A stretch of 64,000 bases of DNA from Mobula hypostoma (taxonomy: Eukaryota), in assembly GCF_963921235.1 (NCBI RefSeq), contig NC_086108.1:69194001-69258000 (forward strand). Direction: 5' to 3'. Below are positions 470 to 41,620 of this stretch, piece by piece. The position numbers were made by a program, and so were the translations under genes. How positions within the stretch are numbered: position 1 is the stretch's first letter; each line of letters starts with the position of its first letter. The notes below the pieces were generated by a model. That model did not search any database. It was not told where the DNA came from and saw only the letters and a list, made by a program, of their open reading frames with translations.

Positions 470-526
470 CTGAAAGTAATCACATCTATAATGGTCATAG
501 GAGCAACAAAGTCCAAGCTGCATTTG
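470..526 (+). CDS. Gene 1 candidate internal exon, 57 nt, phase 1-1: (A)ESNHIYNGHRSNKVQAAF
   Basis: Acceptor ttgactcacag, donor G|GTATGT, length divisible by 3, open in phase 1 like the downstream exons. Confidence 0.55.
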
Positions 527-879
527 GTATGTATGTGAAATGTCAGAATGTATATTGTAAACTTCTTGATCACCATCAAGTAAGTATCCAGAACTGAAAA
601 GGAAGGTTCTCATGATGCTACATTTCAATCCTTTAAAGCAAATATTAGCTACAAATTGAAGAAATCCAAATGTTTATTTCAAATTTCACCAACTTTCGAA
701 GTGGGATCTACTATTTAACAGCTTAAGTTAGGAGAATACATTCCAGTGCTATAATCTTCAGCCCAAAAGGACTATATATTTTGTGAAACTGGAAGAGATT
801 AAGAAGTCTGTGCATTTGATTTTCTAATTAAAAACAAGCAAAGTTAAAGTTGTGGACAAAATGTCAGTAGAAGGCCATG

Positions 880-2110
880 GGCATTGTGTACGTGGATTGT
901 GTACGTGGATTTCGTCAAAGGGACTTTGGTTCACAAGGTTAAATTGCTTGGCATTCAGGATAAAATAGTAAATTAGATTCAACATTGGTGTAACAGGAGA
1001 AGCCAGAGAATAATAGTAGGTGATTGCCTCTCTGACTGGAAACTCGTAACTAATGGTGTGCTGCAGGGATCAGTGCCAGGTCCAATATTGCTTATCATCT
1101 ATATCAGGGCTTGCAAACCGTTTTATGCCATGGACCAATAGCATCAGGCAAGGGGTCCGTGGCTTCCAAGTTGAGAACCCTTGATTTATATTAATGATTT
1201 AGATGATGAGGTGGTAAACTGCATCAGGAAATTTGAGAATGACACCAAAATTGGAGCGTAGTCGACAGTGAGTATGGCAATCAAAGCTTGCAAAGTGATC
1301 TGGACTGGCTGGAAAAACAGTCTGAAACATGGCAGATGGAATTTAATGCAGACAAGTATGAGGTGTTCACTTTGGGAGGACAAACCAGAGTAAGACTTGC
1401 ACACTGGATGGTAGGACACTGAGGTGTGTGGTGGAACAAAGGGACAGGAATTACTGATCCATAATTCCTTGAAAGTGACATCACAGGTGGTTAAGGTCAT
1501 AAGGAGAGCTTTTTGGCGCTATGGCCTTCATAACTCAGAGAACAGTACAGGAGTTGAGACGTTATGCTGAATTTGAATAGGATGCTGGTGAAGCCCAATT
1601 TGGAGTATCGTGCAGTTCTGGTCACCTACTGATGGGACAGATATCAAAAGCCCTGGAAGAGTGCAGAGAAAGTTTGCAAAGATTTTGCCAGAACTTAAGG
1701 ACCTGAGTTACAGGGATAGGTTGAATAGGTTAGATTTTATTCCCCTGAGTGCAGGAGAATGAGGGGAGATCATATAGCGGTATACAAAATTATGAGGGAT
1801 GTATGTAGGGTGAATAAATTTGATCCCCTAAAATTCCCCTTAAATATTTCACCTCTCATCTTAAACCTATGACCTCTAGTTGTAGTCTCACACCGTAGGG
1901 GAAAAAGCCTGCATCACTCAGGTGGTAGTGAGAGTGTGTAATGAATGGAAGTATGAGACACAGATTCAGTTGTAATATTTAAGAGAAATTTGGAAAATAC
2001 ATGCATGAGAGAGGAATTGAGGAATATTGTCTGGATGCAGGCAGATGGAACTATGCAAAAGACCAGGCTGCCACAGACTAGATGAGCCAAGAGCCCCGTT
2101 TCTGTGCTGG
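880..2110 (+). mobile_element. CR1 LINE, RT to 3' end, degenerate
   Basis: RT remnants (QGSV, INDLD, KFENDTK) and CR1-type 3' region; boundaries approximate. Confidence 0.85.
1105..1183. mobile_element. 79-bp hAT-type MITE nested in CR1
   Basis: Imperfect TIRs CAGGG...CCTTG; 8-bp TSD ATCTATAT / ATTTATAT. Confidence 0.7.
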
Positions 2111-2134
2111 AACTCTGTACCTCCCTCTGCAAAT

Positions 2135-3125
2135 GGATCCTTGATCTCCTCATCAGGAGGCCACAATCAGTCTAGATCAGAAACAACATCTCCTCACTGA
2201 CAAGCAACTCTGGCACACCTTAAGGATGCATGTTTAGCGCACCGCTCTCTGCTCTCTACTCTTATGACTGTATAGCTAGGCACAGCTCAAATGCCATCTA
2301 TAAATTCGTTGATGATACAACTGTTGGCAGTTTTTCAGATAGTGATGAGGAGGCAAACAGGAGTGAGAAAGATCAGCTGGTTGAGTGGAGTCACAACAGC
2401 AACCTTGCACTCAGTGTCAATAAGACCAAGGAATTGATTGAGGACTTCAGGAAGGGGAAGTATTAAGAACACATACCAATCGTTATCAACGGGTCAGCAG
2501 TGGAAAGGATGAGCAGCTTTAAGTTCCTGAGTGTCAACATGTCTGAAGATCTTTCTTAGGCTCAACATATTGATACGATTACAAAGAAAGCACACCAATG
2601 GCTATGTTTTATCAGGAGTTTAAAGAGATTTGGTATATCACCAAAGGCCAGCAAATTTCTACAAATGTACCATGGAGACCATACAGACTGGTGCATCACC
2701 ATCTGGTCTGGAGGTGATCGGCCAAGGCACAGGGGTTGGAAAAAGCTGAAGAGGGTTGTAAACTCATCCAGCTCCGTCGTGGGCACAAGCCTCCCATTGA
2801 GGACATATTCAATAGGTGATGCCTCAAGAAGGCAGCGTCCCTCACCTCCAGGACGTGCCCTCTACTCACAGAGGTACAAGAGCCTGAAAACACACACTCA
2901 TCATTTTAGGAGCAGATTCTTCCCCTGTTGTCAGATTTCTGAATGGCCAACAAACCCACAAACACTAACTTCACATTTTGCTTTTGTGTTGCATTACTTT
3001 TTTTTATATTTCTTATTGTAACGTACAGAAACTTTTTTTTATGTACTACACCATTCTGCAGCTGCAAAATGACAAATTTCACAACTTGTGTCAGTGATAA
3101 TAAACCTGGTTCTAATTCTGGTGTC
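2135..3125 (+). mobile_element. Rex1/Babar-like LINE, 3' half
   Basis: YKFVDDTTVG...NKTKELIEDFRK RT motif followed by a 3' tail. Confidence 0.85.
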
Positions 3126-3691
3126 ACCTGTTTAATATTTTCCTTTCTTTGATTTGTCAGGAGCCTTACAACAATATACAGTCCTGTATGCCTGCCAAAC
3201 TTGCGTGAATACAAATAAAACATTGGAACATTTTAATATCATCCTCACAATTCTTTTACACTGAATCGAAGTTAAACCTACCTCCATTTTTGTCTGGCTG
3301 AGAAATATTCTGATTCTTGAAATACTGTGTGTTTATATAACCATTTACATGTTGCCATAAGCGCATGTTTAAAATATTCCAATCAATTTCATCTTTATTT
3401 CTGTAAAGAACCTCTGGATTCTGCCCCATAGTCTGCCATTGATTTCAGTCATACCCCAAAATATAAAATATATTCAGAATAGAAAACAGTTGTACCTTAT
3501 TTGCACTTTCTGCTCAACGATCTGTGAAGAAAGAAAAAAAATCCAAGCTTTATTATTTAGCTGTACATGTAAAGTTGATAAATATTGATCTATTTAACGT
3601 GAAGTAAATACTTTTGATTTAAAAAGTAGTAATATGACACCAATGATGTACTTCTCATTTCTTTCCCAACTGCTGATCGAAACTGTTGCAG

Positions 3692-3769
3692 AAATTGGGA
3701 GGGTGGAAGCAATGGAAGAAGGCAGAAGAATATCTTCACCGAGCATCAATCGCCAAGACCCATATCCAG
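3692..3769 (+). CDS. Gene 1 repeat exon A, 78 nt, phase 1-1: EIGRVEAMEEGRRISSPSINRQDPYP
   Basis: Acceptor ctgttgcag after a pyrimidine-rich tract, donor CCAG|GTACTC, similar to exons at 8831 and 16405. Confidence 0.8.
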
Positions 3770-4669
3770 GTACTCTTCTGTCTTTCTGCACCTATACAAA
3801 TATTAACTTTATAACATTTATAATGTGCTTTGATAATGAGACACTTGTTCAACATTTGATTAATAATAATAGTAATATGGCTCTAAGAAGCAAACTGAAA
3901 TGTCTGCAAACACATGAAGGATTTCCAGAATTGGACATAATGAATCTTCCCAAATTTCAACATACTGCTTGGTTGACGGTTCTAGTGTTGAATAATACAC
4001 CATGTATATGCAATATATTTACTGTCCAGTTGCTAACAGGAAAAATTGATGTGCTTACTTTCTATATACATATTACAAACTCAACGTTATATGCATTATA
4101 TTAAATTGTTCACTGAAATGTACTGTATGTCAACAGAGAGTTGAAGCTACAGCTGATACTTTTTTCAGCTAGACATTATAACCCCTTAATGCAACAGTTC
4201 AAATATTGTTAAGCAGAAATGCAGTGCTGCTTAGGTTTTCAAAGGTACTAAATATTTCCAATTGCTGGTGAAAATTCTACCATATTAGTTAGCTTTGTGT
4301 TTAGGAAGGTTCTGAGAAAATTTCCATACCTGACCTATAGTGGCTCTCTTGTTGTGAAAATGAAATTATTTTTAAAAAGTATCTCAACCTCAATTTTAGC
4401 CTCAAATACAAATTATTAGTGCCCTGGACAATGTTGAAGTCAGAGGAAAAATTCAAAAAAAATCATCTGTTGAATTGCTTTCTTCTTGAACATCTACATA
4501 CAATAAACTCAATAAATGATCAGGACATTATTGAAACACTGTTTATTGCAGGTTTCTTATGAGAGCTCTTCCAGTAAGCTGGTGGAGCATGCCAATGCAA
4601 TTCCCTTTCAGGGGCCCACCAAAGGCGTTTTCTTTTCCTTTGTAAAATCTGCTTTTTCACAATTCAAAG

Positions 4670-4693
4670 ACAATTCTACTCCAAGAACTTCAG
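4670..4693 (+). CDS. Gene 1 candidate 24-nt micro-exon, phase 1-1: DNSTPRTS
   Basis: Long T/C tract ending ttcaaag; donor TCAG|GTACTG resembles the donor of exon B. Confidence 0.45.
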
Positions 4694-4714
4694 GTACTGC
4701 TGGGCTACACCACA

Positions 4715-5400
4715 GTGAGCTGTTTGTTGATTGGAGTTCCTGGATTGGTGTCGGTGGCAGAGCCAGCCGAGGTGTCAAAGGGGCCAGTCTTGACGTTGGA
4801 GAAGGAGCTGGCCAAGGTGTTGAAGGGGCAGGTCAGGATGTCAGGAAAGGAGCTGGCTTGGGTTATCGGAGGAGCTGGCCTGCCTGCAGACAGTGTTGCT
4901 GCCTGCTACTCAGAAACGTCGAAGTTGGTGGAGTATATAACCATAGGAGATCGTCTCAGACATTCCACTTGTGATCACAAGACTCTGTTGGATAGTGGGC
5001 TGTGCAGCCCTATTACCCTTGTCTGGAGAAGGGCAGATGACATGGGAGCTGGGTAGCCTCGGTTGTAGCGAGAACTAGGCCTCAAACCTCGGGCCTGCCT
5101 GCTGCTGCAGACCAGGTGAGAGACGTGGAAGCGCTACAACTGGGGCCTGGTCTCTCCCATCAGTGCTGCCCTCCTGTGTTCGAGCGGTGGAATGACAGGC
5201 TGCATTGCGTGCCAGAGGACTGTATCATCAATTGCTAGACATTGTTACACAGGGTTTTTCATTCAAGTGAATATGCTTCTTTGCTCGCTATTTTGAATGT
5301 CACTCACCATTTTGAAGTTTGCTTGCTATTTTGAATACTTCGCACCCTGGCCCCAGAAGAATGCTGTTTCGTTCAACTGTATGAACCTGATTTGATTTAG
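4715..5400 (+). mobile_element. Probable non-autonomous retroelement with GC-rich body and Rex-like 3' tail
   Basis: Tail ccctggccccagaagaatgctgtttcgtt..tgatttgattt resembles other Rex tails in the window; 5' boundary uncertain. Confidence 0.45.
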
Positions 5401-5719
5401 TATACCAAACTGAAATCAAACCTCCGTTGATTTTTCCCTGAGCTGCCTGCGGGGCTTTGCTAATGCAATAGATCTTTCAACAGAAGAGATAATAGAAGTA
5501 TTCTCTGGGAATCTCACTAGACCACTTTTGATGAAAATAAAACTAGAGTTAAAAAATCGGCACAAAGGCAAGTGAATTCAATATTAGTTAGAGCCGTAAC
5601 TAAAACACAGTTGTGTCATTTGATTGCTGGAAGTCAGTGTACCAGTGTGCATGTAACCATCAATCCAACCATGCCAAAACACCTCCTCACTAGTCAAGAA
5701 GGTACATCACATCGACACT

Positions 5720-6310
5720 TTCTGAGGACAGAGGTGTACAAGACTCCACAAATCTAATCTAAAATCTTTCTACAGGAGTACCATTGTGTGACACAGAACC
5801 TGCAAGACCCAACCAACCACAAGACCCCACAGAGGATAGTAAAAACTGTTGGGAGGATCACCATGGTCTCTCTCCCACCCCCGTCCACCCCATTTGTGAC
5901 ATTTACCAGGAGCATCGCAGATGAAGGGCCCAAAGCATTGTTGAGGATCCCTACCACCCATCCACAATCTCTTTGACCCACTACCATCAGGAAGGAGGTA
6001 CAGGAGCATCAGGACTAGGACTGCCAGACTGGGTAACAGCTTCTTTCCTCAGGCTGTGAGACTAATGAATACCCTGCCACCACCGACATCTTGTCACCAG
6101 GACAGTGAGCGGTATACTGTATTGTTTACTGTTTGCTTGTGCTGTGCACTACATGCATTTTCAGTTATATTTTATTAACTTATTTATGGTAATATTTTGG
6201 TTTACGTGCTGTGTGAGATGTATATTTTGTGGGTGCACTGTGGTTAAGAGGAAGGTTGTTTTGTTTGGCTGAATATATGTACTGTCAGATTACAATCAAC
6301 TTGAACCTGA
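5720..6310 (+). mobile_element. Rex/Babar-like LINE 3' fragment
   Basis: QRIVKTVGRIT and PSGRRYRSIRTRT motifs followed by a tail. Confidence 0.8.
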
Positions 6311-6789
6311 AACTAGAAGTCTCAAACACTGGTTCAAGAGTTCCTGAGCTGTTTTATCAATGTTAACATTTACTTTCTCTTCTGAATCTTCCTGCAGTTC
6401 TGCAACGTTGCCATTGCAAACATTCAGTTATTCCGGTCAAGAAGCTACGCATTATTAAGGCAGCTAACTCACAAATACCTTTTGAATGATACTATTCTGA
6501 ATTAAATTCAAACCCAAGTCATTCCATGCAGGCCATTGTTGATCTTGTACTTCACACAAAAGGAACAAATATGGAAGGATTTTCAATGGGTCACATTTAT
6601 AGTTATTAAAAGATATAAAGCTGCAACACACCAGTTGAAATGGGTCATCTGAACATTCAAATGGAAAGCAGCAAAAATATTTTTGGTATCACAGGATCAT
6701 GTAGTACAGGGGCGGGTCCTTCAGCTTGCGCTGTTCATGCGGACTTTTTGACCAGTCTGTACTAATCCCATTTGCCTGCGTTAGGGCTG

Positions 6790-7200
6790 TATAGAACATA
6801 GAACAGTACAGCATCATATGGACCCTTCGTTCCACGATGTTGTGCTGACCAATATAGACCTACCCCACTATTAATCTAACCCTTCTCTCCTATCCTTTCT
6901 TTTTCTTAAACTTCCCTGTGCTTATCTAAGGGTCTCTTAAATGACCCTATTGTATCAGCCTCTACCACCACCCCCGGCAGTGCGTTCAAAGTTCAAAGTA
7001 AATTTAATTATCGAAGTGCGTATATTTCACCATATACAACCCTGAGATTCATTTTCTTGTGGGCATACTCAGCAAATCTATGGAATAGTAACTATAACAG
7101 GATCAATGAAAGATCAACCAGAGTGCAGAAGACAACAAACTGTGCAAATGCAAATATAAATAAATAGCAGTAAATAACAAGAACATGAAATAATGTGATA
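6790..7200 (-). mobile_element. Adjacent CR1 3' end and Rex-like 3' tail fragments
   Basis: atagaacatagaac tail and ttcaaagttcaaagtaaattta tail, both on the minus strand. Confidence 0.65.
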
Positions 7201-8277
7201 TAATGTGGTGACCGGAACTTCATGTGGCCTATCTGGTGCTTTGTAAGGTAAAACATGATAACGTGTGAGAAGCAATCGAACTAAATTTGGATACTTCTAT
7301 GTGGCCATCTTAGTGGGTTTTCTTATCTTAGCAGCAAAAAAAAAGTGCATGTTTTTTTTTGTGTTGTGCATGCACTGAGCTGATTAACTGGGCTTTCAAT
7401 GCAGGGTATATGTATGCTGACCTGGGAGAAGATGCTGACTTTGGTTCACCTATATACCCAGTGAATTTGGCTGATTTTGTGCACAGCTGGTATTTTTCTG
7501 GTGCCTTGATGTGCTTCTAATTGGTGGTCCAAATCTCAGATCATTGTGGCTCGGTAAACCACGAGTCAGTGACATTGGGTGGCCGTTTTGTTTGTACATC
7601 TGACGATAAGCTCTCCTTCTGTGGTCTTTTCTGGGAGGTGATTATCATGAAGACAAAGAAAAAGATTGAAGGATTTGTACAAAGTTTCCTTGATGTACAA
7701 TATTCCTACTAACCTTTGGGAATGTCTCATCTGTGAATGGTCAAAGTGAAGAAAATACATTTGGGATGGTATTCGGAACTTTGAGGTGATGCATTGAAAA
7801 CACACAGATCTTTGCCAATAGCAGAAGGAGCAGATTTTCTCACAAATTATGCACTCACGCATTCTACTACCTGTTACCTGCACTAAGTGTAGAAGAAACT
7901 GTGGTTCCCACATTAGCCACTAATGGAAGGTAGAGACACATCAAGTTTATATGTCATCTGAGCATTCATAATTTATTCCACTAATTGTCATGCTTATTTC
8001 AAGTTGCATTAATCCCAGAAACATACCACTGAAAAAGCACATTAAGCATCCTGCAAGCCAACCAGTTAAAAGCACAGGATATTTAAAATATATTAAAAAG
8101 TGCAGTGAGTAAGTTACACTTTATGCTCAAAGATTTATGTATGAACAATTTAAAAATCTCACTCCTGTACTCATTTGCATGTCATATAAATCTGACAATT
8201 ATTAATATGTTTAATATGAAACTAAGTAAATATTTGAACAAATGAAGATTACACCAGTGTATATTTATCTTATTCAG

Positions 8278-8373
8278 TTGCTAATCAAAGCTCAGTTATG
8301 GAAAATGAATATACTGAAGTTGCAGAAAAAAAGGAAAAACCTTCAAGGACCAGAAGCCGAAGTCCATGTTCAG
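8278..8373 (+). CDS. Gene 1 repeat exon B, 96 nt, phase 1-1: VANQSSVMENEYTEVAEKKEKPSRTRSRSPCS
   Basis: Acceptor tcttattcag, donor TCAG|GTACTC, open frame, similar to exon D. Confidence 0.8.
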
Positions 8374-8389
8374 GTACTCCTATGTTACT

Positions 8390-8825
8390 AAAGTGCTGCT
8401 CGGACTAGAGGACATTTCTTATGAAGGTGGTTGAATGAGCTAAGGTTTTTCTCCTTGGGGCGAAAGAGGATGAGAGGTGACTTGATAGAAGAGTACGAGA
8501 TGATAAGAAGCTTAAATTGAGTGGGCGGCTGGAGACATTTTCCCAGGGTGGAAATGGCTAATACAAAGAGGGATAATTTTAAGGTGATTGGAATAAAGTA
8601 TTGGGGTATATCAGAGTTAAGTTCTTTGCACTGAGAGTGGAATGGACAGGTACATTATGGGCATTTTAGAAACTCTTAGATAGGCGTGTTGTTGATAGAA
8701 AAATGGAGAGCTATGTCAGAGGGAAGAGTTAGATTGACTTTAAGAGTAAGTTACCAGGTCGGCACAATATTGTGGACTAAAGGGCCTGTACTGTGATGTC
8801 TGATGTTCTATATTCTATGTTCTAA
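8390..8825 (+). mobile_element. CR1 3' fragment filling the intron between exons B and C
   Basis: RRMRGDLIE motif and ttctatgttcta tail. Confidence 0.8.
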
Positions 8826-8830
8826 AATAG

Positions 8831-8881
8831 CAGAGGTGGAAAGAATATCTACTAGCACCAGAAGCCAATGTCCATATCCAG
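8831..8881 (+). CDS. Gene 1 repeat exon C, 51 nt, phase 1-1: AEVERISTSTRSQCPYP
   Basis: Ends ccatatccag|GTACTT like exon A; acceptor TAG/CAG (NAGNAG) directly follows a CR1 tail. Confidence 0.6.
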
Positions 8882-9236
8882 GTACTTCTCTGCTTCACTC
8901 TATACCCACATATGCGTTAATAAAATTGTAAGTTTTGTGTACTGGCATTCGATACCTGCTCAACAGTTAGTCCATTATAAAATTTTGTTGCGTAAATATG
9001 TTCAAAGATATGATGCATATCCAAGGCTTCAGCACAATGGCTGTTACAGATACATGAACATCCATGTGAAAGCAATGGCAATATAACATGAAAATGAATG
9101 AGGAGTGACCTGGAAGATCTGCAAAGCATGCTCCTTAATGGGCAAATCAGTGAGCTTTCATATATGCAATTCAGCCCTAGCAATAGGTATTTTATTTCTT
9201 ATGAACTGTGTAACTGTGTTACATGTGTAATAACTT

Positions 9237-10215
9237 ATCCACTACTGATATCAGGCTCACTGGCCTATAATTTCCGGAGCTTATTCTTAGAGCTCTTTTG
9301 AAGCAACAGAACCACATTGGCTATCATCCAGTCCTCTGGCATCTCACTCATCGATAAGGACATTTTAAATATCCAAAGCCTCTCGCCTCTTCTGCACTTG
9401 CCTTCCTCAGGGTCCGAAGCAACACCTTGACAGGACTTGGGGATTTATCCGTCCTAATTTGCCTCAAGACAGCAAATACCTCCTCCTCTGTAATCTGTAT
9501 CAGGTCCATGACCTCACTGCTGCTTTGCCTCACTTCTATTGACTCTGTGTCCATCTTGTGAGTAATTACAGATGCAAAAAAAATCCATTGAAGATCTCAC
9601 CCGTCTCATTCAGCTCCATGCATAGATAACCACTCTGATTTTCCAGAGGAACAATTTTGTCCATTGATACCCTTTTGCTCTTAATATCTCTATAGAAGCC
9701 TTTGGGATTCTCCTTCACCTGTCTGCTAGGCCAACCTCATGCCTCCTTTTAGACCTCCTGATTTTCTTCTTAAGCATTCTCTTACATTTCTTATACTCCG
9801 CAAGTATCTCAGTTGTTCCTTCCTGCATATATCTGCTATGCACTTCCTCCTTAACCAGGGCCTCGATATCTCTCAAAAAACAAGGTTCCCTACACCTGTT
9901 TTCCTTGTCTTTTATTTTGACAGGAACATACAAACAGTGTTCTCTCAAATTTTCACTTTTGAAGGCTTCCCACTTACCAAATACATTATTGCCAGAAAAC
10001 AACCTGTCCCAATCCATAGTTGCCAGATCCTTTCTGATACCATCAAAACTGACCTTTCTCGAATTTGGAATCTGAACCCAAGGACCAGACCTATCCGTCT
10101 CCATAGTTATCATGAAACTAATAGCATCATGATCACGAGGTGCAAAGCATTCATCCGCACAAACTTCTGTCACGTACCCTGTCTCGTTCCTTAATAGGAG
10201 ATCCAGTATCACACT
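9237..10215 (-). mobile_element. CR1 ORF2 fragment (end of endonuclease to start of RT)
   Basis: LDLLL, DHDAISF and DKSPSP motifs in ORFs 9715-10212 and 9348-9554. Confidence 0.85.
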
Positions 10216-10239
10216 CTATGTATTGATTAAGGAAACTTA

Positions 10240-12700
10240 AGAAATAAAATGGACGATCTTGAAAGTCAGCTACAGATTGGCAAGTATGACGTTGTGGCCA
10301 TCTCTGAAACTTGGCTAGAAGATGGCTGCCATTGGGAGCTGAACGTCCAAGGATATATGGTGTATCGGAAAGATAGGTTAGTAGGCAGAGGGGGTGGTTT
10401 GGCCCTGTGTATAAGAAAAAATATTAAATCGTTAGAAAGGGATGACATAGGACTGAAAGGGTTGAGTTAAAAATGGTATGGGTAAAAAGACCCTAATGAC
10501 AGTTGTATACAGGCCTCCAAGCAGCAGCTGAGATGTGGATTACAAATTACAGCAGGAGATAGAAAAGGTGTGTCAGAAGGGTAATGCTAAGATAATCATT
10601 GGGGATTTTAACATGAAAGTGTCTTGGGAAAACAGGCCAGTACTGAACCCCAGGAGAGAGAATTTGTAGAATGTCTAAGAGATGGCTTTTTAGTACAACT
10701 TGTTGTTGAGCCAGGGGATCAAGGCTGTGCTGGATTGGGTGTTGTGCCATGATCAGGTGGTGATAAGAGAGCTTAAGGCTAAGGAACCCTTAGGGAACAG
10801 TGATCACAATATGATCGAGTTCACTTTGAAATTTGAGAAGGAGAAACTAAATTCCAATGTGTCGATATTTCAGTGCAATAAAGGAAATTACAATGGCATG
10901 AGAAGGGAACTGGCCAAGGTTGACTGGAAATGGACACCAGCAGGAAGGACAGCAGAGCAGCAGTGGCTGGAGTTCCTGCGAAAAATGAAAAAGTGCAAGA
11001 CAGATATATTCCAAATAAGAAGAAATTTTCAAAGGGAAGAAGAACACTACCGTGGCTGACAAGTGAAGTCGGAGCCAAAGTAAAAGTAAAAGAGAGGGCA
11101 TACAAGGAAGCCAAAGTTAGCAGGAAGATAGAGGTTTGGGAAGTTTTTTAAAACTTGCAGAAGGCAACTAAGAAGGTCATTAGGAAGGAAATGATGAATT
11201 GTGGAAGGAAGCTGACGACTAATATCGAAGAAGATACTAAAACCTTTTTTAAGTATATAAAGGGTAAAAGAGAGTTGAGGGCAGATATAGGATCAATACA
11301 AAATGATGCTGGAGATATTGTAATGAGAGATGCAGAGATTGCAGAGGAACTGAATGCGTATTCTACACAGTGGAAGACACCTGCAGTATATTGGACATGC
11401 AAGAGTGTCAAGGTAGTGAAGTTTGTGCAGTGAAAATTACAACTGAGAAGGTGCTCAGGAAGCTTAAAGGTCTGAGGGTGGATAAATCTCCTGGACCTGA
11501 TGGAATGCACCCTTGGGTTCTGAAGGAAGTAGCTGGAGAAATTGCAGAGGCATTAACAATGATCTTTCAAGAATCGATAGATTCTGGCATTGTACCGGAT
11601 GACTGGAAAAATGCAAATATTACTCCACTATTTAAGAAGGGTGGGAGGCAGCAAAAAGAAAACTATAGACCTGTTAGCCTGACATCAGTGGTTGGGAAGT
11701 TGTTGGAATTGACTGTTGGGGATGAGATTACGAAGTACCTGGAGGCACATGACAAGATAGGCCAAAGCCAGCATGGTTTCCTGAAAGGAAAATCCTGCCT
11801 GACTAACCTACTCCAATTTTTTGGGGAAATTACAAGCAGAGTGAACAAAGTAGATGTGGTGTACTTGGATTTTCAGAAGGCCTTTGACAAGGTGCTGTAC
11901 ATGAGGCTGCTTAGCAAGATAAGAGTCCGTGGAATTACAGGGAAGTTACTAGCATGGGTGAAGCATTGGCTGGTCGGCAGAAAACAGAGAATGGGAATTC
12001 TGGCTGGCTGCCAGTTACCAGTGAAGTTCCACAGGGGTCAGTGTTGGGACTGCTACTTTTGATGATGCATGTCAATAATTTGGACGATGGGATTAACAGA
12101 TTTGTGGCTAAATTTGCCGATGATACAAAGAGGTGGAGGAGTGGGTAGTGTTGAGGAAACAGAGAGCCTGCAGAAAGACTTAGATAGTTTGGGGAGAATG
12201 GGCAAAGAAGTTGCAAATGAAATACAATGTTGGAAAGTGTATGGTCATGCACTTCAGTGGAAGAAATAAATGGGCAGACTGTTATTTAGATGGGGTGAAA
12301 GTTCAAAATGCAGAGATGCAAAGGGACTTGGGAGTCATAGAAATATTCTGAATGTTAAAAAGCCTGAACAGATTAGATATGTCAGTTATTTCCCATGGTA
12401 GGGGAGTCTAGGGCTAGAGGGCACTACTTCAGAATTGAAGGACATCCATTTAGAGCAGAAATGTGGAGAAATTTCCTTAGTCAGAGGGTGGCAAATCTGT
12501 GGAATTTGTTGCCACGAGTGGCTGTGGAGACCAAATCACTGGGTGCATTTAAGGCAGAGATAGATAGGTTATTGATTAGCCAGGGCATCAAAGGGTATGG
12601 GGAGAAGGCAGGGGAGTTGGGATGACTGGAAGGATTGGATCAGCCCATGATTGAATGGCGGAGTGGACTCGATGGGCCCAATGCTCCTATATCTTATAGT
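10240..12700 (+). mobile_element. CR1 LINE ORF2 (APE endonuclease + RT) and 3' UTR, frameshifted
   Basis: YDVVAISETWL, SDHNMI, KSPGPDG, NYRPVSLTS, YLDFQKAFDKV, PQGSVLG, KFADDTK. Confidence 0.95.
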
Positions 12701-12858
12701 CTAACTTTCCTGAACACATTTCATAAATCTGGAACTTAAACTCTATATTAATTTGCACATACAGTAGATTATCTATATATTTCATGCACAGTAAAATTAA
12801 ATATTTAATTCTAACTTTCATTCTTTTATGTAAAGCTGTAATTGTATTTCCTATCCAG

Positions 12859-12948
12859 CTGGTAATCAAGGCACCATTGTAAAAAATGCAAGAGCAGAAG
12901 AGAGAAAAGAAATTATGAGTCAGATTAGAAACCAAAGTCCATGTCCAG
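12859..12948 (+). CDS. Gene 1 repeat exon D, 90 nt, phase 1-1: AGNQGTIVKNARAEERKEIMSQIRNQSPCP
   Basis: Acceptor tttcctatccag, donor CCAG|GTAAAG, open frame. Confidence 0.8.
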
Positions 12949-14626
12949 GTAAAGCAAAGCACTGATAAATCAACATTCTCAGAACTTTCACAGAACAGGA
13001 CAATCTGATTTTCCAGACCACTGTTATTCTCACATATTACACAGTAAATTTTGAAGTGAGTGTAATGGAATCAGGAAATATGCAAGCACTCTGGACCCCC
13101 CTTCTGGCTGTGTACTTGCTCATACTCTGTACATCCGGCTCACATTGCAAACGACTGAGTGAATCAGGTGCTAAACAATCAGGATTCCCAAACAATCAAA
13201 TACCATATTATCAAAGTTCAACTGTAACTCTTCTACATTATTCTATGGGTGGGACTGGGGTGTCATATTCCTATAAAGTGGTACGTATTGTGGTTTTCTG
13301 CAATGTGAAACCACTTCATCTGTGCGTATATCAAGAAAAAAAAGACATTTTGTGTTAACATTTTTTCCACACAATTTTCATGCAAACTTTTTTTAGATTT
13401 TTGGGTAGAGGTTTGCAAATTCTGCAAGGCCATACTTCCATAACCCAAATGGCCATCTGTCTGAACAATAATAAACTGTATAATATTATTGGATGTTTTG
13501 CTAATTGGTACTGCACATTTCATCAATTATGAAATTATGTGGCTTAAATAGTGGGTATAAATGTGTTCTAAAGTGGAGCAGCCAGATGAGATACAATAGA
13601 TTTTCACAAATTTGACCACATTTCTGTGTGGTTCTGATGTTAAATAGTACATGAAATTTGACTTTATATATCTGGGTATAAAACTATAATTATGTGAATG
13701 ACAAGGAGTTGCTCATTTCTAATCAGCTTAAGTTCCAGTAAAGTTATAAGACATTTGGACCCTTTACATTTTTTTAAATCCAAAAACTGACCAAATCTTA
13801 TGGTTTATGCAATGGCCTCAGTGGAAAAATCATAATTGGTACATAATTTTGAAACCACACTGACATGCACATTTTCTTGAGCAGTATCTTAGCCTCTAGT
13901 ACAAAACTGCTTGCTTTAACTTCTGTTGTTCCTTTTCAAACTATTGTACATGAAAATACAGTACTACCAGTTCAGGATTAATTATTGAGAGACTATACTC
14001 ACGAATAACTCTGTTCCATATAGTGATTCAGACAGCACATTGTTGATGTAGTACTTTCCATCATAAGGAATCTCAGTGTAAAGGCTCTGTAAACCTATTC
14101 CATGAAATGGATGTAAAAAAAGTAAAATAAGAAGAGGGAAGAGTTGGTAACAGATTTCTGTGAAAGGGTAGAAATTGACAGCAAAGGTGATGAACTTTAA
14201 GTCCTATGTGAGAGCAGGAACAAACCATTAATAGACCCAACACTGTAGCAGAGAAAGCGGTGAGGGAAGGAGCCAGTTTCACTTGTCCTACAAAAACCAC
14301 AGGCACACTGCATCCTTCCTTTAATTTGCTAAAAATGAGTGAAGTTAAAGAACAAGGTGTTCAATATGATAACAAGTTCAACCAGACACGGAATGGTGGT
14401 GGAGAGTAATGATTAGTTCTCTACCCAAAGAAGAAGTGAAGGACCCCCAGATCATCATTATGTGGGTAGAAGTATACAGACTCTGTAACATACATGTTGA
14501 AAAAGAACTGTATGGAATCAAGTAACTGGAAAATGGCAAACTAGAGGGTACCAAACTTTTTAAATCAACATTAAGTGGGCAGAGATTGGACAAAGGGGGA
14601 AAGAGTAGGCCAAGGTAAGCAGAAAT

Positions 14627-15725
14627 AATAAACACAAGAGGTTCTGCAGATGCTGCAAGTCTTGAGCAACACACACACAAAGGTACTCAGCAAGTCAGGA
14701 AGCATCTGTGGAGGGGAATAAACAGTCGACATTTCTGGTTAAGATCCTTCATCAGACCTGGAAAGGGAGGATAAGAAGGCAGGGAAGGAGAAGGAGTACA
14801 AGCTGGCAGGTGATAGGTGAGGCCAAGTGAGAAGAAGGTGGGGGGGTGGATGCAGTTAAAAAGCTGGGAAGTGATAGATGGAAGAGATGATGGGCTGACG
14901 AAGAAAGAATCTTATAAAAGATGACAGTGGACCATGGAAGATGGGGAAGGAGGGAAAGAGGGAGATGATAGACAAGTGAGGATAAGAGAAAGGGTGAAAA
15001 GGGAATAGAAAAAGAGAGAAGGAGGGAGAGGGAGAAATTACCAAAAGTTAGAGAAATCCGATGTTAAAGGCTACCCAGAAGGAGTGTGAAGTGTTGCTCC
15101 TCTAAGTTGAAATTGGCTTCATTGTGACAATAGAGGTGGCCATGGACAGACATGTCAGAATAGGAATGGGAAGTTGATTTGAAATGGGTGGCCACCAGGA
15201 GCTCCTGTCTTTTGTAGCAGACAGATTGAAGGTGCTCAATGAAGTGGTCCCCCAATCTGTCGTGTCTTACCAATGTAGAGGTGGCTGCATCGGGAGCACC
15301 ACATGCAGTAGATGACACTGACATACTTGCAGATGAAGTGTCACCTCACTTGGAAATACTGTTTGTGGCCATGAATAGTAGTAAGGGAGGAGGTGTAGCA
15401 CTTGTCACACTTGCAGGAATGTGCCAGGAGGGAGATCAGTGGGGAGGGACAAGTGGACAAGCGAGTCACGTAGAAGAAGGTCATGAAAGGAGGGGAGGAA
15501 AAGGTGTGCTTAGTGGTTGGATCCCATTGGAGATAACAGAAGTTATGAAGAATGACTGTAGGAGGATGGGGTGAGGGCAGGGAAATGGAGGAGATGCGGA
15601 TGAAAGCAACATCAATGATGGTGGAAGGGAAATCCTGTTCTTTGGGGGGGAAAAAGGAGAACATCTCAGATGCTTCAGAATGGGAGGCCAAATTCTGAGA
15701 ACAGGTGCAGTAGAGATGGAGGAAG
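14627..15725 (-). mobile_element. Penelope-like element 3' part (GIY-YIG region and terminal repeat)
   Basis: Reverse-strand similarity to the element at 25030-26100; hammerhead-like motif at 14723-14760. Confidence 0.8.
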
Positions 15726-16404
15726 AAATAAGTTCTGTTGAACAACATCAAGCTGAAACAATGAATGTACCAAAATGGTCCTGCGTATAATTTTGAGAAG
15801 ATAAAAGTGGGCTGTGTGTGCAGTTTGCACACTGAGAACAGAGACTAGGGAACTAAAATGACCAGAAGAAATGCGACTGGATGATACCTGTTGTTCAATG
15901 TAGGGTTATAGTCTTCCAATTGCAGTTCAGTTCCTATTATTGCATTCTTTATCTGAGTATGAGACTGAGTAAACGTTCCCTCCCCCCTTTATGGACAGAA
16001 AAATATTCAGTGTGGACAGAAACTAGAAAGTAAGATGATCTAAATGCTGCCATCAAGATACTACTGAAGTATTCCAATCATGTTTATGTTTATCTCAAAT
16101 GGCAGAAACACATTTCCTCTGGAAACACATGTAATGCATCCAATAAAATCATGTCTGAAGTACACAGGTTATTCAAAATGGGCAGCAATCTGAAGTATGA
16201 AACTATCCTGTAATTAGCACTTTTTTTAAAACAGAATTCTAAGAATAAGCATCAAAAATTCTAAAATCGTATGCATTTATTTAAAGTTAATAACTCAAAT
16301 CTATTTGCATAAGGTCTGTACTTGAATAAAAGAATCAAAAATACACTAATATTGTAATTGCATTTTCTTTATCATGTTTATAAATGAACCCCCCTTCCCT
16401 GTAG

Positions 16405-16479
16405 AAGAACTACAGAGTGAACAACCAATAGAAGGAAGAAGAACATCTTTATCAAGCATAAGATGTGTTCCATGTCCAG
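16405..16479 (+). CDS. Gene 1 repeat exon E, 75 nt, phase 1-1: EELQSEQPIEGRRTSLSSIRCVPCP
   Basis: Acceptor cccttccctgtag, donor CCAG|GTAGCT, EGRRxS motif shared with exon A. Confidence 0.8.
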
Positions 16480-16924
16480 GTAGCTTATCACCTTTTTACA
16501 CAGCCATCCGTGTGTTCATGCAGCACAAAATGCATTGTGCACTTTACTAATCTGATCGAGCAGCAGTTGAGTTGTATAATAATTTGGCTAGTAAATGCAA
16601 GTTCAAATATGTATAGTCACGTAAAGCACAGTCAGGATTGGGTGCAGTACATTTTTACAAACTGAAACTTTTGCCTTGTGCTTCTTAATTTTAGCAGTTT
16701 TAAAGCAGTTGTGTGAATTATTCAGCCCCTGGAGACATGAGAGGAAATGTTGATGTGTCTGCTTTTCAAGATATACAATAGTAATATGAACATTGACTCT
16801 GCAAAAATAGTTGAGTTCATGTAATGGAAAGTTTTAAAGTGCTACAATTTTCTTGTGGGCATTTAGACTCGGCTGGGTTTATAAATGTGGATAGTTGAAT
16901 GTACATTTTTATAGCTACAGAAGA

Positions 16925-18350: not shown

Positions 18351-18679
18351 AAAAACCTACTGGCTCCATATCTACAAGTCATAACCAGGGCTCAGTTACC
18401 TCTCTGTGTTTGTCTTTTGCACATTGGTTGTTTGTCAGTCTTTGTCTGTTTATGTATAATTGTTCATTAAACTATTGTATTTCTTTTTTCCTGTAAATCC
18501 TTGCATGAAAATGAATCTTAAGGTAGTATATAGTAACATCTACATATTACTGCAATAGTAAATTTACTTTGAACATCTTCAAAGAACATTTGCGTAACGT
18601 AAGAATAATTCCAGAATTGATAGGACTTTGAAAGATAATAGCCAGAGGACTCACCATAACTAAAACCGCCTCTTTCAAG

Positions 18680-18949
18680 TATCATGTACCCCGTGACGGG
18701 TTAAAGAACCAGCAGAAATGGAAAACACTTTGGAGTCCGGTATTGCTATTAACTACAATATTTATTAGTAACTACACAATACAGTAATATAAATGCAGAT
18801 AAATCAAACAGGTTAGCAATGATTATATATAAGTAAGTGTGGAATATATAGGAAAACCAAGCTTCTTCAAGTCTAGGGGTAAATAGATACAGTTTTATGA
18901 TGATGAGTAAAGTTCAGTTCAGTTCGTGGTATTGAGTTGAGTAGTGATG

Positions 18950-22249: not shown

Positions 22250-23350
22250 CTCGTTTCCACTCCAGTTTTGTGGGCTCCAGGGTGGCTGATGAGGCCAGTA
22301 TGGGAACACTGACACTTTCTGAGATGGGACAAAAGGTGCCTGACAGTGGGTTAATTATTTATAAATCTCTGTACTCCTTCCACTCCTTGCACTAGCTTCT
22401 GTGAGGTTCTCAACACCAATTTTGATGTTTTTTTCTCTGTATTGAGCAGTCATGGGATGAGAATATGAGAAGTCAAAGGAGTTGTTGTACTCTTCATGGA
22501 GGCATTGAGTATATCCTTGAGTCATTTTCTCTGCCCACCAGGTAATCTCCACCTGTGAGAGAGGTCAGAATAGTCTGGGCACACAGATGATTGGCCTGCC
22601 TAACCTGTAACTTCAATGCTGGGGCTAGTGGTCTCAGAGAGGACACTGATGTTGCTTTACTCTCCCTCCTGTGAATTCACAGGATTTTGCAGAGGGGATA
22701 TTTGTGGTGTCTTTTTAGTGCAGTAATATGCAGTCCCAATCACAGAAGCATGCAAGAAGATCGAGAATTTAGCTATCTAGTTGACCACAAGCTTTATGCC
22801 ATATCTGAGGACTTGATCTTCAAATATTCTTCTTCACAGTGATCACAAGCTGTGCTGGCACAATGAGGAATGGTAAGTTTCATCCAAGAAGTGGCTCCCG
22901 AAAGGTAGGAATTGCACAAGCTGCAATACCATTTACTTGTCCTCTGTTTAACAGACTACTTAATCTAGTATTTACCCATAAAACATAAAGGAAGCATCCT
23001 AGCAGAAAATTAATTGGACCACCTTTACATTCCTGAGAAAAATAGGCCAACATTACAACAACTGGCACAAAGGCACCTATGGAATTGAGGATATTAGCAA
23101 AAATAAATAATAAGACATGATTGGGAAGGATAGAAAGCATTCTTCTATATGGGCTATCTTAGTGAGCCCATATATCTGGTAACTTTGCCTACTATTGTAT
23201 GAATATTCCTTGCTCTGAATATTGATATGATGCTGACCTCTAATTGCAATGATTAGAATATCTGCTGTTATTAGTTTACTGGCCCATATTTTGAGACTGA
23301 CTGATTTATTTGCTCTGAACATCTCCTATGACTGCATGCTAAACCTCAAA
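22250..23350 (-). mobile_element. Highly degenerate RTE-like LINE fragment
   Basis: Weak resemblance to an RT C-terminus only; family uncertain. Confidence 0.35.
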
Positions 23351-23977: not shown

Positions 23978-24055
23978 ATAATCAACTGACCAAGGGAGCA
24001 GAGGAAGGTAGCCAAATATATTCAACATATGACCCATCTTTGGATTGCTGTTCAG
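23978..24055 (+). CDS. Gene 1 repeat exon F, 78 nt, phase 1-1: DNQLTKGAEEGSQIYSTYDPSLDCCS
   Basis: Acceptor ttctctttcttag, donor TCAG|GTACAC, xNQ start shared with exons B and D. Confidence 0.8.
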
Positions 24056-37804: not shown

Positions 37805-37927
37805 CTTATGAATTCAACTGTCTAGAAGGAAGTATACCTGATGCACATGAAGATTCTGAATGTAGAACTGGGACAGTAGGACTTGGTGAACAAATGTTTG
37901 TGGAAGAATGTCAATTCCATTATCCAG
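37805..37927 (+). CDS. Gene 1 exon G, 123 nt, phase 1-1: AYEFNCLEGSIPDAHEDSECRTGTVGLGEQMFVEECQFHYP
   Basis: Acceptor cttcctttgtccgcag, donor tatccag|GTACAC (same YP|G end as exons A and C). Confidence 0.8.
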
Positions 37928-39237
37928 GTACACGATAATTCTTATAACAAGATTGCTTATCATACAGTGATAGTATTGTATACACCCACGGAGGACAAAA
38001 CAAAGACTGTAATCACCCACCTCAACTTTGCCCCTCTTGATTTTACAGCATAAACCAACATAGGCTCATGCATCAGCCTCCTATACTCCGGAGAAAATAG
38101 CCTAAATGTATTCAGTCACTCCTTATAACTCAAGCCTTCCAGTCTTAGCCACATCCTTCTGAAACTTTCCTGCACCCTTACATCCTTCCTGTAGCATTGC
38201 CTCAGAATACAAGGATGCCCTGTTAGAACAGAGATGAGGAGAGATTTCTTTAGCGAGATAGCAGTGAAGCTGTAGAATTTATTGCCACAGACAGCTGTGG
38301 AGGTTAAGTCATTGGGCATGTATAAAGAGGATGGTCTTTATTAATAAAGACGTCAAAGGTTATGAGGAGAAGGCAGGAGAATGAAGTTGAGGGGCATAAA
38401 AAAATCCTCCAATGTGGAATGGTGAAGCAGACTCGATGGGCTAAATGGCCCAATTCTGCTCCCATAAATACCAAAATCTCACCAAAATCTCGTACAGCGG
38501 TAACATGATGTCTCAACTCTTGTATTCAATACCCTGACAATGAAAGCAAACATGCCAATACACCTTCTCAATACCAACCAGGGAATATGTGCTTGTGTCT
38601 TTCATCTCTCTGTTTTACAGCACTCTCTGGTGCCCTTCCACTGAATGTGCAAGCCCCACTCTGGTGTAATTTCCCAGAATACAGTACTTTACACTTGTCT
38701 GTTCGATGTCACTGTAACTCACAATTCATCCTCAAGTTCCTACTGAGAATCACGATCATAGTAGGTGATGTTAGAACTAATACTATATGTATCCTGCAAT
38801 AATGGAGTCTGACTATATGAATAAGTGTTTATTCGCCTGAGAATGAAATTACCTCTATTTGTAACTATTTACTACAATTCTGCTGTTTTCAGTGTGTAGA
38901 TGCAATTGGAATGAGAAAAAGGGTTTATGCTTCAGCTCAGAGATCCTTCCTCAGAACTTGGAAGAGGGAAAACAAGTTATTTTTAAGTTGGAGAGAGAGT
39001 AAGGGAGAGATGGAGAGAATAAAGGTTGATAGGTGTGTCCTGGGCTCTCATGGTGATAAACTGTTGATGAAGCCATTGGTAAATGGAAACAAAGATCACA
39101 AGGGAAAGGAAGAGCCACAGAAGAATAGGCAGACATCATTGCAGAGTAAACATTGGCAGCAAAAGTAATCAAATTTTAGAATTCTTTTTGAATACAGGAA
39201 GCAGAACCAATAAACTACAATCATCAGTGTAGCAGGA

Positions 39238-39472
39238 GAGCAGGCTGGTGGTGCAGTGAGATCTGGAGCGAAGGTTCCTGAGTTCGAATCCAGGTCGGGC
39301 CACCCCCGAGCACGCTTTCCATCCGTGCTGGGTTGAGTGTCGAGCTAGCCACTCAGCCTCGTAAAAAATACAAGGGTCGAGTCAGGAACATTCGTAACGT
39401 GACCCGGTTAATCCTGACACCACGTGCCAGACAAGAATGGCTGAACGTCTGGTACGACATGCTTAAAAAAAA
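39238..39472 (+). mobile_element. tRNA-derived SINE with short poly(A) tail
   Basis: A-box-like TGGTGCAGTGA at 39249, B box GAGTTCGAATCC at 39280, A8 tail, 10-bp TSD TGTAGCAGGA. Confidence 0.88.
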
Positions 39473-40907
39473 TGTAGCAGGAAAGAAATTGGGGGAGGGG
39501 GTCTGAGTAGTCCTGAAACAAGGACAGTTCCATGTCTCCCACGGGAAGACAAATTTGGCCTCACATCTCATTAATTTATCAATTGAATGGCTTCATCACC
39601 ATGGCAAATCTATCAGAACTGTTACCATTGTTCTAGCCGTCCCTCCCCACCCTCTCTGCAATTTAAGCATACATTTTTTTTTCTTTTTCCCAGTTCAAAA
39701 GCAGGGGCTTTGAACTGAAACATTAACTTAGCTTCTCTTTCCATAGATATTGCACAGCTGCTGAGAGTTTCCAGCATCTGCATTTTTTGATTATCATCAC
39801 ATGTTGAATGACAACCAGATCATATTTTAGGTTGGCTATTTTAGTCCAGACTTCAGGTTCAATCAAGTCAATATCATACCCAAATTTGTGGGTAATTTCT
39901 TCAAAATTTAGATTAGACAATAGTTTATAAATACTCTGACTCAGTTTTTTTCCTGGGCATGTGGATTGCATGATGCTGCATCTTTATTGACCTTCTCTGA
40001 GGAAGGACAATACAAAATATTGAGTATATAACTGGGCATATGAAGCTGTCATACAAAATAATAATGTCATGGTTACACAGTACGTTATAGATGAACGAAA
40101 AGGTTCATAATTTGCTGATGTAGAGTGCATGATACAATTTGTCCTCTTTCCAAAGGATCCATGTACAGACCATTTCTATCATGTAGTAAATAAACTGAAG
40201 TAAAAACATTGATAATGTAGAGAGACAGGAACCTATCTGGGTGAATCATTACATGTGCCACTTCAGCTAATTCTGCCTGCTGCAAGCAAAATAAAAGATA
40301 AATTCTGTTCATCAGCTGCTTCGTTGTTTGGAGAGTAGATTCTATATGCCTTCCATATCACCCTTTTTCCACATAACTGTATAAAGATAACCCTACCCTG
40401 CAAGTCAATGAAATCCTTAAATCCCCTTTCTCTTTTCCCTCATTGTTGTTGCAGTGCTCTTTACAAGCAGCATTTGCCCGAGCCAGGACCTCAAAGGGAG
40501 CAACAGAGAAGTTTAGTGTCCACTCAGTACATATTGCAGCCCACTTGAGTGTTCCCCTCATCCTACAGGCACTAATTTGTGTACTAATTCCTAGAGAAGC
40601 ATTGTTAATGTCCAAAATCTACCAAACACAACTATACATGTGAATCAGGTGGCATGGGTATTTTGGGTTGAATTTCTCCATCTTTCTTGAATTGTCATAA
40701 AGTGTATGGAAACTACATTGTAATTTCTTTTAAACCAAAGGTTTAATTCTCCCAAGTTTTCAAAAAAAATGTTTAGTTTTCAAAATTTACATTCTTGGGG
40801 AAATTATTTTTAGTTGTTAATAAACATTCTGATGCACAGTGTAGAGCAAATAGAACTCTTTAGGGTGCAGACTGATTTATGCTCACAAAACGGTTTCTAT
40901 GTTTTAG

Positions 40908-41620
40908 CTTCTAGAGAGCCATCAGAAGACTGCGAATATAGTAGCAACAATGCTCCATGCCTAGATGAAGTTCAACAAACATCAAATTTTCAGTGCAAAA
41001 GTGGAGAAATTATTCTATGTAATGACACGTTTGATAACACAACCTCATCTCAGAGTTCTTACCAAGACTATCTGTCTCCTTTGCCAACTGATATTTCAAC
41101 ACCAAGATCCGAATCATCTTCACAAATGTCTTCAAGTTCAGAAATAGCTGATGATTTTGGAAACAAGTCTGAATACTCTCTAAATAGCTCAATACCAAGC
41201 GAAGCATTTCTGAACTTAATGCAGAGTTATTTTGGAAATGGAGATGATGTTAAGTCTGTGAAGATTTCAATCCTTCTGGACAATTCCCAGAGTGATGACT
41301 TAAGTAATAGCACTAATGTAAAAGAAACTACCAACAGAATTTCTTACCAAATGAATTCTCCATTATCTTCTGAAGGACATTCCGAAAAGGGACTACAAAA
41401 TAATTGTTATTTTTTGGATGGTAAAGACACCTTAGCGGATGTGGAATCATCCATGGCTTCAGTTGCAAGAAGCCATACTAGCCTTGAACCAGAGTTTAAT
41501 TCATTAACTCCCACAATGGTGATTGATTCAATTGACTGCTACTGTGCAAAGGACAAGGAACCATGTAGCAAAACAACTACAGTTAGATATATGTTTACCG
41601 ATAGTGAAACTGAAGCTTAA
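40908..41620 (+). CDS. Gene 1 terminal coding exon, ~236 aa, Ser/Asp/Glu-rich, probably disordered (ASREPSEDCEY...DSETEA*)
   Basis: Part of the longest ORF in the track (40814-41620), no TE motifs; acceptor ctatgttttag in phase 1; TAA at 41618-41620. Confidence 0.8.

Follow-up and report, generated by a model that had tools for sequence, protein, structure and literature searches.

What gene is encoded by the small, frame-preserving exons strung along a 64,000-nucleotide stretch of the genome of the devil ray Mobula hypostoma (the window), and how did so many of them come to lie in a row? The gene, which a preliminary description of the window had considered hidden, is already annotated in RefSeq as LOC134354888 (here gene A; eight isoforms, XP_062920394-401), and it is a real elasmobranch gene that is uncharacterised and unstudied. 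Within the window, the RefSeq gene has the same exons except those of 57 and 24 nt, and it is not a well-known gene. Taken together, the evidence leans towards a 19-exon elasmobranch membrane-protein gene whose tail has grown by copying of exons flanked by phase 1 on both sides (class 1-1), and which is likely a co-orthologue of mammalian C1orf185. Its start lies ~54 kb upstream, and the window holds its 3' half.

Orthologues of gene A are found in rays, skates and sharks (LOC129700943, LOC116977805, LOC119964595, LOC127568721), and a profile search of 1.84 billion proteins, weighted on the last exon, matched eight, all of them elasmobranch by name. Large protein database searches returned no match outside elasmobranchs, none of 1583 candidates was a shorter relative of the gene A alignment (A1), a Pfam scan of the last exon assigned no family, and an Atlas search with the tail core gave no usable match. 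None of six LOC identifiers was mentioned in the literature searched, paper searches found nothing on the gene, and the passage in PMC6625096 is a bare gene list only.

An N-terminal domain had been expected upstream of the window, and the exons there encode a short N-terminus without a predicted signal peptide, one EGF module and one transmembrane (TM) helix. The EGF module (PF00008; 28.1 bits, cut-off 21.5) has six Cys and occurs in six of the seven members of alignment A1. A single hydrophobic peak is present in 5/5 gene A proteins, and the product is predicted to be a single-pass membrane protein. The 19 coding exons comprise five asymmetric exons (the first, the TM exon of class 1-2, one each of classes 2-0 and 0-1, and the last) and 14 symmetric 1-1 exons, namely one EGF exon and 13 tail exons. 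A conserved first exon was found here at contig position 69139791, and the Mobula RefSeq models use a different one, at contig position 69151451. AlphaFold was confident at the helix only, with pLDDT < 50 for 693 of 760 residues, which, given a shallow alignment of seven sequences and an EGF module that was also left unresolved, is weak evidence that the tail is disordered.

The gene order at this locus is FAF1, CDKN2C, gene A, gene B, RNF11 and TTC39. The product that we name RNF11, from what we take to be its N-terminus and PY motif, was confirmed to contain a RING-H2. Gene B is a tandem paralogue adjacent to gene A, with the same EGF-TM-tail order. The extracellular domain at its N-terminus, to which the second coding exon contributes, belongs to no Pfam family. 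Against PDB sequences the gene B profile matched generic EGF entries only, and the AlphaFold model of gene B had a mean pLDDT of 33. Similarity between the last exons of the two genes was not significant pairwise (70/1000 shuffles scored as high) and weak between profiles (probability 16.7, P 0.0015). Readings of gene A as a LAT-like immune adaptor or a mucin were dropped in view of synteny and architecture.

The new finding is that gene A and gene B fill the CDKN2C-RNF11 slot, which in humans is held by the testis-specific C1orf185. The order CDKN2C, C1orf185, RNF11 appears in a human gene listing (PMC4263743), five coding exons of C1orf185 in a supplementary file (PMC8750304 supplement), and testis-specific, spermatid-stage expression in two mammalian studies (PMC4502369; PMC8750304). 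Without its 1-1 exons, gene A has the same count of five, with the helix in the second, and guides against exon 2 of mouse C1orf185 (4930522H14Rik), as given in the supplement, translate to FMAAGA and FLICKR (PMC8750304 supplement), peptides compatible with the gene A helix, which ends in Cys and basic residues. Mammalian C1orf185 was represented in the comparison by short guide and primer peptides, and the analysis yielded no sequence match between it and the ray genes. Based on synteny and exon count, gene A and gene B are probably co-orthologous with mammalian C1orf185; because two paralogues occupy the slot, one-to-one orthology cannot be assumed. PF15842 (DUF4718), which we take to be the C1orf185 family, matched no gene A or gene B protein or fragment scanned with HMMER, whose filters drop weak matches, and a PF15842 search of the Mobula genome found nothing, nor did its controls give a match.

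C1orf185 differs from gene A in length (199-230 aa, the longest isoforms here having about 620-910 aa), in having five exons, which leave no room for the EGF module and repeat cassettes, and in being a single gene in the human listing rather than one of a tandem pair. It is reasonably probable that C1orf185 is the stripped remnant of a jawed-vertebrate EGF-TM gene of which sharks and rays kept a pair, with 1-1 cassettes gained and lost by lineage on a five-exon skeleton. The pair would consist of a gene B with signal peptide, uncharacterised extracellular domain and EGF, and a signal-less gene A with an optional EGF; mammals would have no cassettes, the devil ray ~ten copies of a single exon, sharks a different repeat and skates an intra-exon Cys-rich repeat. 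If the link to C1orf185 holds, an orphan mammalian sperm protein would be traced to the first jawed vertebrates, in an ancestral EGF-bearing form, and a remark in a preprint, made from unpublished data, that linkage of C1orf185 and Cdkn2c is not conserved even in vertebrates would be contradicted (bioRxiv 10.1101/2024.05.26.595977). If a mammalian counterpart of gene B survives, and only then, this paralogue might also give a clue to the fertility of the mouse knockout.

Alternatively, gene A and gene B may be an EGF-TM pair retained in elasmobranchs, acting as juxtacrine ligands or as adhesion or signalling receptors, with C1orf185 having entered the slot separately. This possibility, which is considered doubtful, draws on the confinement of all matches to elasmobranchs, the DUF4718 result, five tail tyrosines that are invariant in 7/7 aligned proteins, and the Atlas neighbours of the N-terminal 130 residues, which were tomoregulin-like (0.91) and pro-neuregulin-4 (0.89) clusters. 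Neuregulin-4 and other EGF-family precursors likewise have a short N-terminus, one EGF, one helix and no signal peptide. However, ErbB ligands and neuregulins space Cys1 and Cys2 by seven residues and carry an Arg before Cys6, whereas the gene A module has neither, its Cys spacing being of Notch type (4-5-11-1-8) with Leu or Phe before Cys6, and it is encoded by one skippable 1-1 exon. In models of two species this exon is dispensable, the helix occurring without EGF in 1/10 Heterodontus and 15/16 Narcine proteins, which is a poor fit to a ligand. The exact syntenic slot and the five asymmetric exons, as many as C1orf185 has, also count against this possibility, and co-orthology with C1orf185 is the reading preferred here.

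Within the window, the preliminary description had assembled the tail from nine short stretches and a last exon (Table). All nine match their description in length, AG/GT ends and a frame that is open in phase 1, eight of the nine end in YCAG/GTA, and together they join positions 40908-41620 in frame, with a single stop, at the end. The residues PYP, PCP or PCS, said to precede the split codon in most cases, do so in five of the eight YCAG/GTA exons. Seven of the nine stretches and the last exon recur letter for letter in RefSeq isoforms, those of 57 and 24 nt do not, and the 33-nt exon had been overlooked.

Table. Features of gene A and gene B in the window (isoforms, number of the eight RefSeq isoforms that contain the exon; z, repeat-family score)
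Feature	Position	Strand	Length (nt)	Isoforms	z	Remarks
r6, repeat cassette	3692..3769	+	78	8/8	5.4	phase 1-1
r7, repeat cassette	8278..8373	+	96	8/8	7.0	phase 1-1
r8, repeat cassette	8831..8881	+	51	5/8	7.2	second acceptor 8834; absent X4, X5, X8
r9, repeat cassette	12859..12948	+	90	6/8	5.9	absent X6, X7
r10, repeat cassette	16405..16479	+	75	8/8	4.1	second acceptor 16408; 1/3161 background sites as high
r11, symmetric exon outside repeat family	22840..22872	+	33	8/8	-1.1	flanked by cag and gtaagt
r12, symmetric exon, at most distant repeat member	23978..24055	+	78	7/8	1.9	absent X8
r13, penultimate symmetric exon	37805..37927	+	123	8/8	2.8	
Last coding exon, Ser/acidic	40908..41620	+	713			100% match to P0001, 59-64% to orthologues
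AATAAA, candidate polyadenylation signal	41702..41707	+				first after stop codon
Candidate exon	470..526	+	57	0/8	-0.6	outside repeat family
Candidate exon	4670..4693	+	24	0/8	1.0	outside repeat family; in dispersed repeat
Gene B first coding exon, predicted signal peptide	54443..54542	+				ATG 54443; matches P0070 N-terminus
Gene B second coding exon	59164..59341	+				73% to P0063; single match in genome

The 57-nt stretch lies in unique DNA and has good splice sites; it has no support as an exon and may at most be a minor one, and its repeat-family score gave no support to its being a decayed repeat copy. The 24-nt stretch sits in a dispersed repeat, with a 73% match over 154 nt at another place in the region, and is probably a pseudo-exon. 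Chance alone yields many open symmetric pseudo-exons (positions 1-40900 hold 54 on the plus and 47 on the minus strand), and the introns are 48% repeat-masked (self-BLAST of 464 kb). Contigs of four runs compared with positions 1-20000 of the window were dominated by repeats, with no exon junction among the 15 joints listed. Exon r13 is kept across sharks and rays, at 43-51% identity in six orthologues, and among orthologues the core of the last exon is 68-81% and its C-terminal motif 85-90% identical.

The suggestion that the gene grew as phase 1-1 exons were duplicated in tandem was borne out. Ten of the 13 tail exons share a common 3' end (z 4.1-7.9, a level reached by 0-1 of 3161 background sites), and r3, r4 and r5 are alike well into their introns, at 80-85% identity over 407-674 nt; the gene A tail was lengthened by tandem copying of one small 1-1 exon, to ~ten copies. 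The expectation that exons would be more conserved than flanking introns failed for these youngest copies, which diverge as fast as introns do (77-85% identity in r3/r4/r5 exons versus 65-85% in introns), and r4 and r5 differ by 6 synonymous and 15 non-synonymous changes. Between species, repeat exons are 7-31% identical, versus 63-90% for the TM exon. From the three exons r3, r4 and r5, we infer that the repeat exons drift nearly neutrally. Tandemly duplicated symmetric exons that encode disorder, and are often alternatively spliced, are likewise noted for calpastatin and MAP2 in a paper on class 1-1 exons and the disordered proteins made of them (PMC3632108); in comparison with these, the gene A repeats bear no sign of conserved functional modules and are part of the tail of what is predicted to be a membrane protein. 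Exon duplication is a familiar mechanism and RefSeq already annotates the gene, so the finding is modest as written; the locus offers a clean natural series for frame-preserving exons multiplying without visible selection on sequence.

The cassettes had also been likened to the variable exons of CD44 and CD45, that is, to a regulated combinatorial isoform code. Gene A does resemble those genes in having consecutive exons that can be skipped in frame, in a protein predicted to cross the membrane once: all 13 tail exons have a length of 3n and phase 1 on both sides, and nested skips occur in the models of Heterodontus (38-115 aa) and Narcine (27-55 aa). Skipping without frameshift is therefore present in models, but in Mobula it involves 3/13 cassettes across eight models. 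Furthermore, CD44 and CD45 variable exons are regulated and encode an extracellular stalk, whereas the gene A cassettes evolve fast and follow the helix on its predicted cytoplasmic side. Because three exons diverge like introns and only 3/13 cassettes are skipped, a code of this kind is unsupported and must be regarded as improbable.

The net charge around the helix is -2 to 0 before it and +2 to +5 after it (6/6 proteins), which predicts a cytoplasmic tail, C-terminal to the helix, whose composition is 15% Ser and 5% Cys. That composition and the missing signal peptide would also suit a type II protein (N in, C out) with the repeats as an extracellular glycosylated or disulphide-linked stalk, but this is very improbable in view of the positive charge after the helix, of the six-Cys EGF before it, which requires an oxidising compartment to form, and of paralogue B, for which a signal peptide is predicted and whose domain order is the same. 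With a cytoplasmic tail, the helix would be a signal anchor of the reverse type (N out, C in), ending in a Cys cluster that might be palmitoylated, and partners in the cytoplasm could bind the conserved core of the last exon and the C-terminal motif. The repeat exons would form a length-tolerant Ser/Thr/Pro/Cys spacer, and their nearly neutral drift is proposed to arise because any 1-1 copy preserves the frame. The product may act at the male germ-cell membrane, a role drawn from the C1orf185 link only. Downstream of gene A, a CpG island at 53.7-54.5 kb adjoins the first coding exon of gene B.

The gene (gene A) is not hidden, as the preliminary description had it, because RefSeq already annotates it as LOC134354888 of Mobula hypostoma, which the last exon matches at 100%. 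This exon occurs once in the Mobula genome and matches orthologues in Leucoraja, Amblyraja, Narcine, Scyliorhinus and Heterodontus at 59-64%. The protein search that had been proposed thus led to an annotated gene with elasmobranch orthologues, but none of these is characterised; the literature searched yielded no mention of the six LOC ids looked up and no paper on the LOC134354888 gene or on shark C1orf185. Gene A is a real, annotated but uncharacterised gene. Two Logan contigs (2903 and 2839 nt) each encode a complete skate-type protein of 893 aa, differing from the Leucoraja model by 4 and 7 substitutions, which, at the level of sequence, indicates a spliced transcript of the orthologue in a skate. 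When contigs of four runs were compared with the Mobula window, no exon junction was found among the joints listed, repeats having swamped the comparison.

All nine small exons proposed earlier and the 713-nt last exon are present in the sequence, with AG/GT ends, lengths divisible by three and an open phase 1, and together they form a single open frame of 460 codons. Within window positions 1-40900, however, 54 plus-strand and 47 minus-strand candidates pass a similar filter; such features alone carry little weight, so each exon has to be backed by independent evidence. Seven of the nine are used by the eight Mobula isoforms, which are predicted RefSeq models of 16-19 coding blocks ending at 41620, but the 57-nt and 24-nt exons appear in none, and a 33-nt exon present in all eight had been missed.

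Features of gene A and its surroundings (window positions, negative values lying upstream; L007, L013-L014 and L027 are contig pieces)
Feature	Position	Length, phase	Basis or remark
CpG-rich promoter-like stretch	L007:5500-5700		upstream of conserved first exon
Conserved first coding exon	-54209 to -54116 (L007:5791-5884)		conservation with skates; in-frame stop just upstream
First exon of RefSeq models	from -42549		
EGF exon		141 nt, 1-1	PF00008
Transmembrane exon		97 nt, 1-2	after EGF exon
Two exons after transmembrane exon		133 nt (2-0), 109 nt (0-1)	
Tail exons (r1-r13)		13 exons, all 1-1	between 109-nt exon and last exon
Tail exon r11	22840-22872	33 nt	
Last exon	40908-41620	713 nt	
Gene B (downstream paralogue)	54443-59341, on to G000:C50:69299820		
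LTR-like long ORFs	L013-L014, about -131400 to -129000		between FAF1 and CDKN2C
hAT transposase remnant	L027:7186-8437		PF05699

Upstream extension in search of an N-terminal domain, as had been advised, reached the EGF and transmembrane exons. The conserved first exon is absent from all eight Mobula RefSeq models, whose own first exon differs and lies 11.7 kb downstream, and the annotation probably gives Mobula an N-terminus other than the ancestral form. The CpG-rich stretch contains a candidate CRE-like element, TTACGTCA. The protein has a single hydrophobic helix and no predicted signal peptide, and the charge bias around the helix favours N out, C in (six of six proteins). AlphaFold was confident solely at the helix, which, with an alignment of seven sequences, is weak evidence of disorder; the composition (15% Ser) agrees with disorder. 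Forms that keep the helix but lack the EGF occur naturally, as 1 of 10 proteins in Heterodontus and 15 of 16 in Narcine; in one of them the conserved first exon is spliced straight to the helix exon. The EGF exon is found in none of the 16 Narcine models (P0005, P0006, P0032-P0045), judged from which it may have been lost in this electric ray. ErbB ligands are recognised by Cys spacing, on which membership of gene A was rejected.

The proposed growth by tandem exon duplication was borne out. A common 3' block (z 4.1-7.9) marks ten of the 13 tail exons, of which five lie upstream of the window and five within it; of 3161 donor-like background sites, 0 or 1 reach such scores. Membership is marginal for r13 (z 2.8) and r12 (z 1.9), and r11 does not belong, nor do the 57-nt and 24-nt candidates. 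Moreover, the similarity of r3, r4 and r5 extends into their introns, with alignments of 407-674 nt at 80-85% identity (maximum score 35 in 200 null trials). For these three, the suggested comparison of exon with intron conservation gave 77-85% identity in the exons and 65-85% in the flanking introns; between r4 and r5 there are 6 synonymous and 15 non-synonymous differences. On these three exons, the pattern suggests drift. When compared across rays and sharks, as had been proposed, copy number varies: the ten-repeat profile finds five copies in each skate, three in Narcine, one in Heptranchias and none in Scyliorhinus, Heterodontus, Pristiophorus or two gene B proteins. Heterodontus has a variable middle of 77-192 aa, against 269-313 aa in Mobula and 345-452 aa in Leucoraja. 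In sharks the repeated unit is another one. A Cys-rich decamer array specific to skates is a second, independent kind of expansion; in the skate proteins P0023 and P0031 this Cys-Leu-Asp-Pro-Cys array lies within one skippable 107-aa block (P0023 residues ~510-630).

In-frame skipping exists, but is limited to 3 of 13 cassettes, each skipped in at least one of the eight Mobula models; three acceptors shift by 3 nt. The analogy drawn with CD44/CD45 variable exons was rejected, as the tail is predicted to be cytoplasmic and its exons are poorly conserved. The array is instead an added case of an established class, in which disordered proteins carry symmetric exons duplicated in tandem (PMC3632108). 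Between species, the last-exon core is 68-81% identical, the C-terminal 20 residues 85-90% and the repeats 7-31%. Membrane anchoring would fall to the helix, leaving a small, optional EGF on the outer side, and the last-exon core and C-terminal 20 residues would act as functional ends on the cytoplasmic side; the repeats would serve as a Ser/Thr-Pro- and Cys-rich spacer that can vary in length, since further 1-1 copies do not shift the frame. We infer that the gene A protein may be palmitoylated, have partners and play a germ-cell role.

Upstream of gene A lie FAF1 and CDKN2C, the latter called among CDK-inhibitor chains (p18 124.7 bits vs p19 113), although multi-repeat ankyrins outscore p18 by summing repeats. 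Downstream are an RNF11-like gene (RING-H2 confirmed), presumably RNF11 on the basis of its N-terminus, and then a TTC39 gene. DUF4718 (PF15842), which we take to be the C1orf185 family, gave no match in the gene A/B proteins and fragments scanned or in the genome, where no control gave a signal either, and sequence and profile searches with both genes gave no hit outside elasmobranchs. Leaving out the 14 symmetric exons reduces gene A to five exons, the number of coding exons in C1orf185; in gene A, the second of these carries the helix. The peptides encoded by mouse C1orf185 exon-2 guide sequences, FMAAGA and FLICKR, are compatible with the gene A helix end. Published work gives the human order as CDKN2C, C1orf185, RNF11 (PMC4263743) and describes C1orf185 as testis-specific, with five coding exons, 199 aa and a fertile mouse knockout (PMC8750304), a mouse mRNA peak coinciding with elongating spermatids (PMC4502369) and a protein found in bull sperm (PMC10629479). 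Against the link stand the negative DUF4718 scans, the lack of hits beyond elasmobranchs and a preprint that calls C1orf185-Cdkn2c linkage not conserved in vertebrates (bioRxiv 10.1101/2024.05.26.595977). On balance, we consider it reasonably likely that gene A is a co-orthologue of C1orf185.

Gene B, between gene A and RNF11, encodes in order a predicted signal peptide, an extracellular domain, an EGF, a helix and a Ser/acidic last exon. The strand-rich extracellular domain (~100 aa) matched no Pfam family and is 73% identical between ray and sawshark; AlphaFold gave no confident fold for the gene B protein. Its EGF is the sole other genome match to that of gene A (58%; 36 candidates scored), and the EGF-TM profiles of the two genes align with very high confidence. 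The search with gene B yielded ten relatives, nine of them named and all of these from elasmobranchs, and the catshark ids are consecutive (LOC119964594, LOC119964595). The Pristiophorus japonicus model P0063 joins gene A, minus its last exon, with gene B into a protein with two EGF-TM units; this could reflect either genuine read-through or two genes merged in annotation. Long ORFs that resemble the gag/protease of a Gypsy-type LTR retrotransposon lie between FAF1 and CDKN2C, and a hAT transposase remnant lies between gene B and RNF11.
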